From Candidatus Wolframiiraptor sinensis (GTDB taxonomy: Archaea > Thermoproteota > Nitrososphaeria_A > Caldarchaeales > Wolframiiraptoraceae): 37,253 nucleotides of DNA. The notes beneath the pieces were generated by a model. The model did not search any database. It had not been told where the DNA came from and saw only the letters and a program-made list of their open reading frames with translations. Position 1 is the stretch's first letter. Every line of letters begins with the position of its first letter. The stretch spans positions 1 through 37,253 of the forward strand of contig JALNKA010000009.1 in assembly GCA_023261815.1 (NCBI GenBank), read 5' to 3'. Position numbers and translations under genes: made by a program. This document shows, in pieces, positions 672 through 11,698 of the stretch.

Positions 672-1583
672 ATGGTGAGGAGGGTTTTCGTTGATACGGC
701 TTGGAACTCGAAGCCCCATACATGCTATGACCCTGCCGAGGACATGTTCTTTGAGGTCGAGGATCTCGCTGAGCTCGCCGGAAGATATGATGAGGTTTAC
801 ATTGATTGCGCGCTTTTCCCGAATATGTGGCCTCAGCTGAAGGCGTTGATAAACGATGGCGCGAGGGTCTTCTACTTCGCGTGGCCTTGGAAGTGGAAGA
901 GGCTACGCGAGAAATATGTTAAGGAGCTGAGGAAGAGGTTCGGCAGGGAGAAGACCGATTTCGGTGATGCCTATATCTTGTCGAGGATCCATGAGTATAA
1001 GCCGAGGCTTTTTAAGGGGATCACGCCTCTCGACGTGGAGTTCAAGCCATTATTGATGAAGGAGAGGACGCCAGCCAGGCAACTGATGAGGCTACGACGG
1101 ATGCTGGAGCTAGGCATAGATGTCGAGGATGAGATCAGGGATTGTGAGGAGCGGTTAATGGAGGTTCGCGGCGAGATAGTCGAGAATGCTGTGGAGAAGA
1201 TCCCGGGATTCATGGAGGTCGCCGAAAAGCTAGGACTAGATAATGAGGATGTCAATGCGCTGTCGGCATTAGCAGGGCTACTAATCTACCTGAGGTGGCC
1301 TTATGAGGTCATGTCAATGCATAAGGCGATAAGATACCTCGGATTATATAAGCCGGCCAAGGAAAACATTAGGAAGTTCGAGGAAAGATACGGGGAGAAA
1401 TACAGGAAGCGATATAGCGGGTATGCTAGGAGGTGCTTGAATTTGATGACGGCTGCTATATTGATCAAGAAGAAGGGAATCCTTAGGCCGAGGGCCAGGG
1501 ATGAGAAGGAGGTGCTGAGGAGGCTGCTAGGAATTCTGAAGACCCACAATAATGAGACTATTGCTGGTGGAGGGGCAGGATAA
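672..1583 (+). CDS. IS110-family/Nop-domain-like protein (RuvC DEDD-like N-terminus, coiled coil, Tnp/Nop-like C-terminus)
   Basis: N-terminal strand ending in Asp (VFVDTA), second acidic strand (VYIDC) and KTDFGDA matching the IS110 KTDxxDA motif. Helical middle region, then RYLGL resembling the IS110 AYxGL motif. Purine-rich SD upstream. Confidence 0.6.
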   Translation: MVRRVFVDTAWNSKPHTCYDPAEDMFFEVEDLAELAGRYDEVYIDCALFPNMWPQLKALINDGARVFYFAWPWKWKRLREKYVKELRKRFGREKTDFGDAYILSRIHEYKPRLFKGITPLDVEFKPLLMKERTPARQLMRLRRMLELGIDVEDEIRDCEERLMEVRGEIVENAVEKIPGFMEVAEKLGLDNEDVNALSALAGLLIYLRWPYEVMSMHKAIRYLGLYKPAKENIRKFEERYGEKYRKRYSGYARRCLNLMTAAILIKKKGILRPRARDEKEVLRRLLGILKTHNNETIAGGGAG

Positions 1584-1682
1584 AAGCCCTTATGAAGCCT
1601 GTGATCTGGCTTTAGATACTCCAGATAGTATGGGAGTAATGAAAGAGTTGGCGCAGGTGAAGGGCTATCCAGATGCCCCTCC
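1569..1682 (+). ncRNA. Candidate double kink-turn (C/D-box-like) hairpin RNA overlapping the 3' end of the IS110-like gene
   Basis: Nested pairings GGAGGGGCA/TGCCCCTCC, GGAT/ATCC, AGCCCT/AGGGCT, CCTGTG/CGCAGG and TACTCC/GGAGTA. ATGAAG (1592) lies opposite GTGA (1657-1660), and ATGAAAG (1639) lies opposite TAGA (1613-1616). A T-tract follows at ~1696-1702. Confidence 0.55.
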
Positions 1683-1711
1683 CCCGACACCACCCTCTTT
1701 TTCCCATAAGC

Positions 1712-1984
1712 TCACTCCTCGGCGGGCACGACGTGCCTGTAGTAGACCGCTTTGCCCGCTGTGGGCGAGTCCCGTATGATCTCGATTATGTCGCCGGGCT
1801 TGGCGCCGATCGCCTTAACGACCGGGTCCGAGGCCAGTATGCTTGGAAGTTGATGGGGCTTAATGCCATATTTTTTCAGAACCTGCTCGGCTTCCTCAGG
1901 GGACAGCACCCTGTGCTTCGGAACCAGGAAGTGCTCCAATATCGAGAACTCCTCTGAGGGAGGAGAATCCTTCTTCTTGGACAT
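1712..1984 (-). CDS. rpoH: DNA-directed RNA polymerase subunit H (Rpo5)
   Basis: [10 protein letters not shown]...LPSI...DPVV...[18 protein letters not shown]...YYRHV signature. Start placed at ATG 1984. Confidence 0.96.
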
Positions 1985-2137
1985 CTTCCCGCGAGAGGAC
2001 TCTTCAGGAGACAAGACATAAACTATGCTCAGCCACCTACTAATAAGTGTGAGTCCAGGTTATAGGGGAGAAAAGCTCAATTAAGCCATCCCGGCAACAA
2101 TCATGCGAAGAGCTTCTCCACCACGGTGGGCCGCGCG

Positions 2138-4744: not shown

Positions 4745-4801
4745 TAGAGAATGAGCAGCCCCATATTTCTACGTAACCCTTTCACGTATAGAATACGTCT
4801 G

Positions 4802-4893
4802 CGGGCCCGGCGGGCTTTGAACCCGCGACCCCCGGGTCTCTTCCAGAAAACCGTTAAAAGCCCGGTGCTCTATCCTGGCTGAGCTACGGGCCC
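4802..4893 (-). tRNA. tRNA-Lys(TTT) with a 17-nt intron at 37/38 (4838-4854)
   Basis: GGGCCCG acceptor stem, D arm AGCTCAGCCAGGATAGAGC, CCGGG-CTTTTA-intron-A-CCCGG and GCGGGTTCAAAGCCCGC T arm. Confidence 0.95.
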
Positions 4894-9804: not shown

Positions 9805-10596
9805 ATGGGTGCCGGGTTGCTGAGGCGCAGGAGCATCCTGAAGCTCTTGAGGGAGAGGAGGAGCATCAGGATTTTCAAAAGGTCTCGGATGCCCGATGAT
9901 ATCGCGAGGCTGATTATTGAGGCCGGCATTAGGGCTCCGAGCTACTCCTATCTCCAGGAGTACTCGATAATCATGGTATCTGATGAGAATCTCAGGAAGG
10001 AGCTTGCGAAGCTCTGCGAGGGCCAAGATGAGCTGATAATGAATGCGGCGGCCATCTTTCTCATCTGCGCGGACTTGAATAGGCCCGCGAGGATGCTCAG
10101 CCTGCTTGGGCACGCGAATGTCCTAAGGTCCAATAAGCATCCGGTAGAATCCATCTTCGCGGTGTTCGATGCAGGTCTCCTCACGGCCTTCATGATGATC
10201 GCGGCCGAGATAATGGGCTACGGCTCGGTCATACTAGATTATCCCATAGTTTACCCGAATGAGTTCGCGAAGCTCTTCCAGCTTCCCCATGGAGTCGTAC
10301 CTCTAGTCCTCCTCTGCGTCGGTGAGAGGGGCGAGTCTCCGCCCCTTAGGCCAAGGCTCCCCCTCGACTTGGTCTTCTTCAAGAATTCGTATCGGGAGGC
10401 TGATCTTGATGCTCTCAAAAACTATCTCAAAGAGTTTGAGGATGCGATGAGGAGGGAGGATTATGCGAGGAAGTATGTCGGCCTCAACATGGATTACATG
10501 GAGTATCTCAAGCTCAAGACGACGCTCAATGATGAATTGAAGAAGACCTATGACGCTGTTGAGAAGTTCCTGAAGGAGAACTTGATGAAGTTTTAG
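9805..10596 (+). CDS. Nitroreductase family protein (NfsA/Frp-like)
   Basis: RRSIRIF, RAPSYSYLQ, ICADLNR, DAGL...AEIMGYGSV and RPRLP. Confidence 0.88.
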   Translation: MGAGLLRRRSILKLLRERRSIRIFKRSRMPDDIARLIIEAGIRAPSYSYLQEYSIIMVSDENLRKELAKLCEGQDELIMNAAAIFLICADLNRPARMLSLLGHANVLRSNKHPVESIFAVFDAGLLTAFMMIAAEIMGYGSVILDYPIVYPNEFAKLFQLPHGVVPLVLLCVGERGESPPLRPRLPLDLVFFKNSYREADLDALKNYLKEFEDAMRREDYARKYVGLNMDYMEYLKLKTTLNDELKKTYDAVEKFLKENLMKF

Positions 10597-10645
10597 CGCG
10601 CTTCCCGGGAAGGTTAATTTAGCCTCGTGATCCTGACTTTACAGC

Positions 10646-11698
10646 ATGGAGGAGGCGGTCAGGATTTTAGCGGAGTATGCCGAGCTGGTCAATGAAGCGC
10701 TCGAAAAGCACATCCCGAGGAAGGTGGATGAGGGCTGGTTAAGAAAGGTCCTCGGAGACCCAGAGTACGCATATGAGGTCGAGTCCCTGAACAAGGGGGT
10801 ATTCGAGCCATTCTGGGACTTGGCGGATCGCGGTGGTAAGAGGTGGAGACCGGCCCTGATGCTCATGATTTACGAGGCGCTCGGAAGAGATCCTAGAGAA
10901 ATCGCGCCCCTTGCCGTGATCCCTGAGGCGATTCATAATGGGACCCTGGCTGTCGATGACGTGGAGGATAGAAGCGAGTTCAGGAGGGGAAGGCCCTGCA
11001 TCCACAGGATCTACGGCGAGGACATAGCGATAAACATGGGGAACACGATGTATTATCTCCCGCTCATAGCTTTGAGCGAGGTCGCGCCTGAGAAGAAGCT
11101 CATGATCCTAGAGGAGTATGTGAAGACTATGATACGGCTGAGCTTTGGTCAGGCCATGGATATCGCGTGGCACCGGGGCCTTGTTGAGAGCGTGAGCGAG
11201 AGCCAGTATCTCCAGATGACGCTCTTTAAGACTGGGGCTTTAGCCGGCTTCGCGGCCAAGATAGCCGCCATAATGGCCGATGCTCCTGAGAATACTGCTA
11301 ATATGCTTCAGAGGTTCGCGGAGCTCATAGCCGTCGCCTTCCAGATTCAGGACGATGTGTTGAACTTGGTTGGCGATGAGGCGAAGTATGGCAAGGAGAT
11401 AGGCGGCGATATAACCGAGGGCAAGAGGACGCTGATGATCATTCATGCGCTCAGAAATCTTCCAGCCGATGAGGCGCATAAGCTCAGGCGGATACTCGAT
11501 ATGAGGACTAATGATAAGCAGCTGATCAAGGAGGCGATAGAGCTCATAAAGAAGGCTGGAAGCATAGATTACGCAAAAAAGATCTCGGAGAAGCTCGCCT
11601 TAGAGGCTCTCGAGGCTCTGAGGAAGGGTCTGCCCGAGCCGAAGAGCAGAGAGAAGCTCGAGGTTCTAGCAGAATTCCTGGTAAGGAGAGAATTCTAG
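10646..11698 (+). CDS. Polyprenyl (geranylgeranyl) diphosphate synthase
   Basis: GGKRWRP, DDVED...RRG, GQAMD, KTG, FQIQDD and DITEGKRT. Confidence 0.93.

Follow-up and report, generated by a model that had tools for sequence, protein, structure and literature searches.

We analysed a stretch of 37,253 nucleotides (nt) of Candidatus Wolframiiraptor sinensis, an archaeon of the order Caldarchaeales (NCBI GenBank assembly GCA_023261815.1, contig JALNKA010000009.1, positions 1 to 37,253 of the forward strand; hereafter the window), and in it an intact gene at 672-1583 (+) for a protein of about 300 amino acids (aa) whose 3' end runs into a structured, guide-like RNA. Gene and RNA recur in many copies in the genome, and at most of the loci compared with uninterrupted relatives the two variable loop strands of the RNA correspond to the two halves of the copy's own insertion site, with one strand the same as the left half and the second the complement of the right half. 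In our reading, to which we give a probability of roughly 0.55, the window carries one intact copy of a selfish element that is multicopy, RNA-guided and site-specific and is probably a homing nuclease.

IS110 bridge recombinases, TIGR-Tas nucleases and box C/D small nucleolar ribonucleoproteins (snoRNPs) were linked only recently through a common Nop-type RNA-binding scaffold, and both the natural role of TIGR-Tas and the relation of the three systems to each other are still being worked out. The family described here joins a TasR-like protein that lacks the recombinase serine with a single dual-spacer RNA, which behaves like one loop of a bridge RNA and names its own insertion site. It thereby offers a directly testable biological role, selfish and site-specific spread, and as an intermediate it could plausibly link mobile elements with guide-RNA nucleases. 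With about 20 natural guide-target pairs, a single genome provides material on the targeting rules of a thermophile-derived, putatively RNA-guided enzyme of ~300 aa, and it raises the sharp question of how each copy acquires a guide that fits its new site.

The 3' RNA and the insertion sites

As delimited by blastn, the repeat unit begins at the start codon (about 669-678) and breaks off sharply at window position 1705, and its most conserved part comprises the last ~25 nt of the coding sequence (CDS) together with the next ~120 nt. Here lies the guide-like RNA module of ~150 nt, at 1557-1705 (+), which overlaps the last codons of the gene. The consensus of 12 copies begins with a long outer stem that starts inside the CDS and continues with helix P1, an asymmetric loop with an invariant GA opposite UGA, helix P2, a large internal loop, the apical hairpin P3 and a pyrimidine-rich tail with a T-run. 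The window copy adopts this fold (minimum free energy z -3.39), with the 5' strand of P1 and the asymmetric loop carrying the invariant GA at 1586-1597 (3' partner 1658-1666), the P3 hairpin at 1617-1638 between the loop strands, as given by the consensus pairs, and the conserved tail at 1683-1705, all on the plus strand. The T-run of the tail is a probable archaeal terminator; the repeat unit ends sharply behind it and the right junction with the flank of rpoH comes next. Judged by eye, the GA loop at 1586-1597 may be K-turn-like and the UGAUGA element may resemble box C.

A covariance model of the module (R1) found 18 copies in the genome of origin, a metagenome-assembled genome (MAG) of 1.18 Mb in 33 contigs with 92% completeness, at E values from 1.8e-48 to 1.2e-10. 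Among 16 loci retrieved from other genomes by way of the protein, 10 gave an R1 match directly behind the homologous gene, beginning no more than about 30 nt from where the protein match ends, and the six loci that gave no R1 match are mostly partial protein matches. In the alignment to the model, 92.9% of cells were paired versus 81.0% in shuffles, none of 500 shuffles reaching the observed value, although the 29 rows of this alignment, one of them an antisense match of the window copy, were fitted to the model, which favours structure. Compensatory changes were present in 27 of the 32 base pairs, and sliding the partner by 1-3 columns lowered pairing to 39-52%. RNAalifold, run independently on 12 copies aligned by MAFFT, returned identical helices.

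An earlier note on this DNA, made from the sequence alone, had placed structured RNA on both sides of the gene. On the 3' side this was borne out by the covariation-supported module, which supports the expected RNA partner next to the gene; on the 5' side it was not supported: the GC-rich region upstream had no Rfam match, and neither strand of the first 300 nt of the window gave a fold more stable than those of its shuffles (z +0.23 and +1.15). The long open reading frames (ORFs) of this region had no Pfam match. Rfam gave no match around the gene at E <= 1 and, for the RNA itself at E <= 10, matches at chance level only, the C/D models included. Contigs of the RNA-library run X18 touch the conserved part of the RNA (bin 1605-1691), but contigs cannot show transcription and the library may hold DNA.

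Both strands of the internal loop consist of a UGGU-like motif, 7-10 variable bases and a UUGAUG-like motif, and the variable cores are different in every copy. The loop strands, S1 and S2, were parsed in 16 of the 18 copies; C13:5252 (contig and position) was dropped for an insertion in P3 and C4:24647 for a missing 5' half. Compared with the 200 nt downstream of their own copy, 11 of 32 loop strands had an exact match of at least 8 nt, all in the complementary sense, versus 17 of 480 for the flanks of other copies, and at a length of at least 9 nt the counts were 8/32 for own and 2/480 for other flanks. In the 1.6 kb upstream, four 10-nt matches to loop strands in the same sense were found, three of them at left junctions (C14:9087, C23 and C33:50305) and one inside the CDS of C33:61433. 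At the loci that fit, one loop strand equals the left half of the copy's own insertion site and would therefore pair with the bottom strand, and the other is complementary to the right half and would therefore pair with the top strand.

The original state of the sites was obtained from genomes of the same genus that lack the insert. Eleven loci were compared in this way, of which six fit strongly on both sides and two weakly; one of these eight is the window copy. At C14:9087, with an insert of ~350 nt, the left 10 nt equal S2, the right 11 nt are complementary to S1 and the halves share 3 bases. At C23:17046, with an insert of 579 nt, the left 10 nt equal S1 and the right 9 nt are complementary to S2; the halves abut in three relatives, and a 2-nt core stands on both sides in the genome of origin. 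In the relatives of C9:60473, 9 nt equal to S2 are followed directly by 12 nt complementary to S1. For three copies at contig edges, the left half predicted from the RNA was found in relatives adjoining the right half, with 8 of 8 positions beside 11 nt for C18:585, 9 of 10 positions with one indel beside 10 nt for C25:3075 and, weakly, 6-7 of 9 positions beside 8 nt for C14:597. C33:50305 showed a left half of 9-10 nt and 7 of 9 positions on the right, and at C5:34147 the right half alone (9 nt) was present at the junction. The two configurations observed amount to one recognition geometry with the element in either orientation, because the reverse complement of the site arrangement is the same arrangement with the strands exchanged. 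A variable filler of 5 to ~105 nt, often ending in an imperfect repeat of the site centre, lies between the T-run and the right junction, and the short duplications seen at insertions measure 2, 3, 3 and 8 bp.

Two other ways of relating loop and flank were dropped. A model with both loop strands on one strand, resembling an H/ACA pocket and raised by the C23 locus, was given up as one C23 core is palindromic and the other loci follow the opposite-strand geometry. A second model, in which the loop pairs in cis with a read-through trailer, was given up as the relatives show the matched sequences to be pre-existing host DNA that flanks the insert.

The window copy itself interrupts the spacer between rpoB and rpoH. 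The right flanking host gene is rpoH, encoding RNA polymerase subunit H, at 1712-2014 (-), which in relatives is followed by rpoB; in three genomes of the genus the start of rpoB comes ~108 nt after rpoH, and in the genome of origin the spacer is interrupted by ~4.2 kb. The left part of the spacer adjoins rpoB on contig C3, which overlaps the first 127 nt of the window exactly. Homology to the relatives ends directly after a 9-mer at C3:8121-8129, and this 9-mer at the left insertion edge is identical to the core (1606-1614) of loop strand S1 (1604-1616, +). In all three relatives, whose rpoB-rpoH spacer is uninterrupted, the 9 bases after the left half-site are exactly the core (1641-1649) of loop strand S2 (1639-1651, +) in reverse complement; in the genome of origin, the right half-site has merged with the similar tail of the element just before rpoH. 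Thus the loop of the window RNA names both ends of the ~4.2-kb insertion. The insertion is composed of an AT-rich segment of 1.8 kb, a GC-rich segment of 1.28 kb, the gene and the RNA, and may be either one element or a nest of insertions.

An independent replicate was found in a relative, G157. At the site occupied in our genome by the gene-less copy C33:50305, it holds an insert of 1.2 kb with an intact gene of ~300 aa from a divergent subfamily, of the type represented in our broad homologue alignment A3 (see below), and with its own RNA module (R1 E 0.018). The loop of this module matches that same site, with 12 nt in its left half and 9-10 nt in its right half, and the insert is flanked by an 8-bp direct duplication. 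In addition, contigs of two public hot-spring runs join position 1464 of the C23 locus (L073) to position 2046, passing over 581 nt, with 2 letters that the two sides have in common, and the boundaries of this empty allele are exactly those inferred from the relatives. One of the two runs also has contigs across the insert and so contains both the filled and the empty allele. On these data we hold the 3' RNA and its relation to the insertion sites with high confidence.

The flank matches could also be read as local regulation by a chromosomal system that is not mobile, similar to TIGR-Tas and provided with dispersed single-unit guides that act on nearby DNA through promoter repression or cutting. 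The matched right half-sites are indeed often AT-rich, promoter-like and intergenic, and nuclease-dead TasR represses transcription according to the available text of 10.64898/2026.09.09.750476. Against such a system, the whole module is absent from eight loci in the relatives, where the half-sites abut, filled and empty alleles coexist in public assemblies, copies lie at contig ends and are variably truncated, and the acidic active-site residues of the protein are conserved, so that we consider it quite improbable.

The encoded protein

The ORF at 672-1583 (+) is intact and encodes 303 aa from ATG 672 or 304 aa from GTG 669, with the stop codon at 1581-1583 and a GGAGG-rich stretch immediately 5' of the start codon. 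ATG 672 is the likely start because the N-termini of homologues read M-[VTS]-R-R-V. Given the 22 tblastn matches in the genome, 69 database homologues and a confident fold model, the gene family is real and not a chance reading frame, and the CDS was assigned to a TasR/IS110-fold protein on the basis of the ORF, the homologues, the AlphaFold2 model and the structural matches.

At the level of sequence searches the family is anonymous. All 69 database homologues are unnamed or called 'hypothetical protein', stem from MAGs of Nitrososphaerota, Bathyarchaeia or Thaumarchaeota, and carry no precomputed Pfam domain. A profile search of 1.84 billion representatives yielded 133 proteins at E <= 1e-3; 29 of these were scanned against Pfam, where the homologous region of none exceeded the cut-off of a family, and a single protein matched DEDD_Tnp_IS110 below threshold. 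For the window protein, Pfam (PF01548 and PF02371 included) gave no match, PHROGs gave chance-level matches only, the NCBIfam IS110 model NF033542 scored 10.2 bits against a cut-off of 140, and phmmer found nothing in the PDB. The search of the PDB with a profile of the close homologues (A1) was discarded, as it returned only coiled-coil noise such as keratin. When A1 was compared by hhalign with 10 canonical archaeal IS110 proteins, only 19 columns were aligned, those of the KTDxxDA motif, at a probability of 0.4.

Alignment A1 comprises 31 homologues at 43-80% identity. The motifs pointed out in the earlier note, VFVD, YID, KTDFGDA and YLGL in an ORF of ~303 aa, are all present and conserved in these homologues, with D9 (VFVD), T10, D46 (YID), K95, D97, D100 and A101 (KTDFGDA) and L226 (YLGL) invariant and G225 and Y227 nearly so. 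D9, D46, D97 and D100 remain invariant or almost invariant in the broad alignment A3 too. The second acidic residue is Asp (D46), whereas the 10 canonical archaeal IS110 proteins have Glu at that place.

The AlphaFold2 model built on A1 is of high confidence, with a mean predicted local distance difference test score of 90.8 and a predicted template modelling score of 0.86. It shows a five-stranded alpha/beta domain (aa 1-118), two long helices (aa 120-177) and a helical C-terminal domain. The N-terminal domain (669-1022, +) is RuvC-like, matches RuvC and resolvases, and carries D9 (693-695), D46 (804-806), D97 (957-959) and D100 (966-968). The two long antiparallel helices (1026-1199, +) are coiled-coil-like by the secondary structure of the model and align with the coiled coils of TasR and IS621, and the C-terminal domain (aa 178-300; 1200-1568, +) is Nop/Tnp-like and devoid of the IS110 serine hairpin, as judged from a TasH match and from the profile alignment to 9mty and 8wt6.

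Foldseek against the PDB returned TIGR-TasR (9mty), ISCro4 (9t56) and IS621 (8wt9 and 8wt6) as its first ten matches, all over the full length and at E values between 2.6e-6 and 5.6e-5. With VIA-align the best match was TasR, with Z 16.3 over 253 residues and a root-mean-square deviation of 3.8, followed by ISCro4 (14.8) and IS621 (14.7; range for IS621 and ISCro4 14.5-14.8), while RuvC resolvases reached Z 8.0-8.5 on model residues 2-118 and the C-terminal domain of TasH Z 12 on residues 119-298. The broad profile A3 hit TasR (9mty) at E 3.7e-10 and IS621 at E 0.0023, and sequence identity to TasR was 11-13%. The earlier proposal of a TasR-like architecture of RuvC domain, coiled coil and Nop/Tnp domain is thus upheld, with IS621 and ISCro4 close behind TasR. 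A homodimer prediction gave an interface score (ipSAE) of 0.00, an outcome that carries no weight either way; the pseudo-symmetry of the RNA speaks for a dimer only indirectly.

The serine loop of IS110 recombinases, GLxPxxxxSG, is represented by an invariant G..P....S in 10 canonical IS110 proteins from genomes of the same phylum. In the family studied here, no serine is conserved after YLGLYKP in either the 31 close (A1) or the 31 broad (A3) homologues, and the length at this place differs by at least 12 residues among subfamilies. The A3 profile alignment puts the GL..P....SG stretch of IS621 on an unconserved, length-variable linker after YLGL, and the C-terminal domain of the model has no beta-strand, hence no beta-hairpin at the place of the IS110 serine. 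In the available text of a preprint on IS110 and Nop5, that serine is carried on a beta-sheet absent from Nop5 and Prp31. The absence of the canonical serine loop, read from the sequence by the earlier note, therefore stands. Its further suggestion, that the later RYSG serine might be catalytic, is not supported: this residue is Asn or Gln in five members of A1 (P0019, P0024, P0049, P0051 and P0058) and mostly Asn in 25 more distant full-length relatives (A3). Another serine, S216, is invariant in A1 and lost in A3. As the serine loop is missing and the best fold and profile match is TasR, the protein is closest to TasR, and we are confident of its class as a serine-less RuvC-coiled coil-Nop protein.

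Proposed homing, rival recombination and related systems

For the spread of the element we propose the following course. The protein, presumably as a dimer, would bind the pseudo-symmetric RNA; TasR and Nop5 are dimers according to the available text of PMC12045711. The loaded dimer would recognise only unoccupied sites with abutting half-sites, since the element sits exactly between the half-sites and only the unoccupied site shows both halves side by side. Such a site would be cut with staggered nicks, and the element would be copied or captured into the break by repair, so that it would spread between cells or genome copies in the manner of homing or a gene drive. Sites already occupied would be immune, and gene-less RNA copies could be served in trans. 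Because the RuvC site is intact and the serine absent, hydrolytic staggered cutting with repair-mediated copying or capture would be the simplest chemistry. By analogy, the rule given in the available part of PMC12045711, a cut at the fifth base of each spacer, would produce a stagger about as large as the 8-bp duplication. That the protein binds RNA, that it cleaves and how the DNA enters are steps that we infer, and homing through RNA-guided cleavage as the mechanism is in our estimate close to an even call. More tentatively, at somewhat under even odds, the family may represent a natural RNA-programmed homing gene drive, free of transposase and recombinase, in which a TasR-like RuvC nuclease with one dual-spacer guide acts against its own empty locus and on behalf of RNA-only copies in trans. 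If true, it would be a free-living, mobile form of the RNA-protein architecture shared by IS110, TIGR-Tas and box C/D systems.

The main rival is an RNA-guided recombinase of the IS110/IS1111 type that uses another nucleophile, or water and host repair, with the variable loop as the target-binding loop and the donor read by a conserved internal loop or the 3' tail, so that the element would move by excision or copy-out and RNA-guided integration. The fold is that of IS621 and ISCro4, insertion takes place exactly at the junction of the guide-matched halves with a shared core of 2-3 nt, as in bridge-RNA elements, and a precise empty allele is expected from precise excision as well. In IS1111 elements the non-coding region lies 3' of the gene. 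The RNA of the present family is likewise 3' of its gene, and a sizeable non-coding region is described for IS1111 and IS110 elements in the available text of the seekRNA paper. However, there is no conserved residue at or near the place of the serine and no beta-hairpin there in the model, and the family profile is nearer to TasR than to IS621. None of the IS110 models of Pfam and NCBIfam passes, and hhalign aligns the family with canonical archaeal IS110 proteins at the KTDxxDA motif alone. Moreover, a single variable loop was found in the RNA and no second loop matching the element ends; the left ends are heterogeneous, although a recombinase needs a defined donor site; the element occurs in either orientation relative to the guide geometry; and the insert in G157 is flanked by an 8-bp duplication. 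We regard this recombinase as an unlikely explanation, if the most serious of those considered.

Several observations weigh against a homing element. The match of loop and site is equally expected of an IS110-type recombinase and is by itself no proof of cleavage and repair. In a homing gene drive the guides would have to be re-written or selected for each new site, as every copy has a different, perfectly matching pair; how a new copy gets the guide for its new site is unexplained, as no two copies have the same loop and perfect matches over 18-21 nt are beyond drift alone. Six of the 16 parsed copies have no downstream match of at least 8 nt, and two of these, the window copy and C33:50305, were explained afterwards. 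Some loci depart from the geometry or do not inform on it: C9:60473 is rearranged in its own assembly, C4:36516 is uninformative because its flanks are not collinear in four of five relatives, and at C33:61433 both loop strands match one strand and overlap (site in relative G159), contrary to the opposite-strand geometry. On a contig of the MAG KUA_Bin06 (locus L027, about 1014-1033), an unsplit and apparently uncut site-like sequence lies 111 nt 3' of the RNA, consisting of 9 nt equal to one loop strand, 3 extra bases and 8 nt that complement the second one; it may represent a target that resists and bears a scar, or else a further target. Furthermore, the left ends of the inserts have no common sequence and insert sizes range from ~0.35 to ~4.2 kb, which leaves the moving unit undefined. 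The window copy, for its part, has loop-frame motifs that deviate from the family consensus, and its reconstruction across contigs C3 and C12 rests on an identical overlap of 127 nt in a MAG of 33 contigs.

Among known systems, TIGR-TasR (PDB 9mty; Faure et al., Science 2025, PMC12045711) is the nearest, with a RuvC domain that has conserved acidic residues, a coiled coil, a Nop domain, no recombinase serine and the best structure and profile match. The guides are alike as well: two short spacers, each framed by the same two motifs, address opposite strands of one site, features of tigRNAs in the available text of PMC12045711, and this spacer geometry was found at the six strong and two weak loci and at the one G157 locus. 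In contrast to TIGR-Tas, which has an array, of dual-repeat or of stem-loop type, of usually 5-15 units, there is no array; a single unit with a long closing stem is fused to the 3' end of the gene, its frame motifs differ from the CCA and UG boxes given in the same text, the target of the guide is the element's own insertion site, and the unit of gene and RNA exists in many copies and is polymorphic.

With the IS110/IS1111 elements IS621 (8wt6 and 8wt9) and ISCro4 (9t56), the family shares the full-length fold, the KTDxxDA motif and the N-terminal DEDD (RuvC-like) domain, and further an element-encoded non-coding RNA whose loop strands match the two target halves, each on a different strand, and the halves have a short core in common where they meet. 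The one variable loop behaves as a target-binding loop. Unlike them, the family lacks the GLxPxxxxSG loop and does not pass PF01548, PF02371 or NF033542, no donor-binding loop was found in its RNA, whose consensus structure has no second variable loop, each copy has its own target instead of one target per insertion sequence, and the left ends are heterogeneous. The element works like a single-loop bridge RNA or a stem-loop tigRNA, yet for each family a defining feature did not turn up here, the serine and donor loop in the case of IS110 and the array in the case of TIGR-Tas.

Like homing endonuclease genes, the element interrupts the site it would recognise, so that this site is whole only in empty alleles, and such alleles are found in relatives (eight loci) and in populations; unlike in protein homing endonucleases, recognition would be by RNA, and cleavage would be by the putative RuvC nuclease activity. 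The guide-RNA nucleases TnpB and IscB promote the retention of transposons, and the gene of TnpB, a RuvC nuclease, has a guide-bearing RNA at its 3' end. The present arrangement, a RuvC-domain protein encoded together with a guide-bearing RNA at the gene's 3' end, may be likened to that of TnpB, but in contrast to TnpB a transposase partner is lacking, and the scaffold holds the guide within itself instead of having it read from the flank. Archaeal box C/D small ribonucleoproteins (sRNPs) have the Nop domain and coiled coil in common with the family, as well as an RNA whose pseudo-symmetric loop holds two guides and which has a UGAUGA-like element and, beside a stem, an asymmetric GA loop. In these sRNPs the RuvC-like domain recruits fibrillarin, and L7Ae binds K-turns of the RNA. 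Nop5, as far as the available texts of PMC12045711 and the IS110/Nop5 preprint describe it, has a Nop-type domain, a coiled coil and an inactive N-terminal domain derived from RuvC. The family differs from the Nop5-L7Ae-fibrillarin sRNP in that the RuvC acidic residues are kept and the guides match DNA insertion sites rather than rRNA or tRNA. The earlier note had thought of an intermediate between IS110 and C/D snoRNP proteins; since the element is present in many copies, each with an RNA loop that matches the place where that copy is inserted, its behaviour is closer to that of an IS110-type or homing mobile element.

In the available parts of the literature on TIGR-Tas and tigRNA, IS110 and bridge RNA, Nop5 and snoRNA, and archaeal homing (including PMC12045711, 10.1101/2024.06.21.599552, 10.1101/2025.10.25.684509, 10.64898/2026.10.21.760802 and 10.64898/2026.09.09.750476), we found no TasR-like or serine-less IS110-like element with a single guide for its own insertion site. 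The supplement text of PMC12045711, in the portion available, has no match for the taxon names tried, and the proteins of its table S1 may still include members of the family.

Copies of the element and flanking sequence

The comparison of genomic copies and empty sites proposed in the earlier note gave, besides the 18 RNA copies and the empty sites with abutting halves at eight loci, 22 tblastn matches to the protein in the genome of origin, many of which lie at contig ends and many of which are truncated or contain stop codons. Remnant copies show a 5' truncation of differing extent or an internal deletion and retain the 3' end. Canonical IS110 was not found in this genome, nor was a tandem guide array near the gene or a TIGR-like array genome-wide with relaxed settings of Tandem Repeats Finder (TRF), which may miss arrays whose units are about half variable. 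In the phylum, the protein profile matches 18 of 301 sampled genomes, all from a single order, in three of its families, and often with several matches in a genome; R1 at E <= 1e-5 was found in none of 13 other genomes of the genus, whose completeness is 70-95%.

The state of the copies raises the possibility that the element is a decaying relic, now without activity, that descends from IS110 or TasR; its guide-site matches would then be fossils left by past insertions. Most genome copies are truncated or have stop codons and the window RNA deviates at conserved frame motifs, as would suit a relic. Nevertheless, the window ORF is intact and its product 99% identical to database cluster P0001, the invariant residues are kept in 31 homologues, the RNA pairs are kept by compensatory changes and the alleles are polymorphic. 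Moreover, the loop-site matches are still perfect over 9-12 nt while the genome copies differ by 13-30% outside them. We consider a relic very improbable, and a homing element remains our preferred reading.

One further protein-coding copy, at C17:28909-29556 (locus L011), is a full-length paralogue of a divergent subfamily with 38% identity to the window protein. It has ~150 nt of its upstream sequence, including a small ORF of about 85-89 aa, in common with C14:33580-33730 and C28:40908-41060, which belong to copies of the window subfamily; this stretch may be an upstream partner gene or a common left part of the element. A second short repeat that encodes a small protein stands beside several RNA-only copies in either orientation (C23:17330-17500, C33:50580-50720 and C9:~60700-60860) and could be cargo or another small mobile gene. 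In the right flank of C33:61433, a separate repeat of ~180 nt is nested within C33:61190-61440. The genome-wide TRF run also listed a tandem repeat at C9:209164-209333 with a period of 21 nt, 8 copies and 81% match.

Within the ~4.2-kb insertion at rpoH-rpoB, the AT-rich left segment of 1.8 kb (C3:8038-10000; L009 1039-3000) has 34-44% GC and contains an ORF of 197 aa (L009 2052-2645) that belongs to no Pfam family. The GC-rich segment of 1.28 kb, which occupies 1-668 of the window and continues in C3:~10000-10738, has 69-79% GC compared with 54% in the genome, with 69-78% in 200-nt windows over 1-668, and it is unique in the genome. Farther downstream in the window, at 4801-4893 (-), ARAGORN placed a tRNA of 93 nt with a four-base, undetermined 'anticodon', to which Rfam assigned 55 bits as tRNA; it is probably an intron-containing archaeal tRNA.

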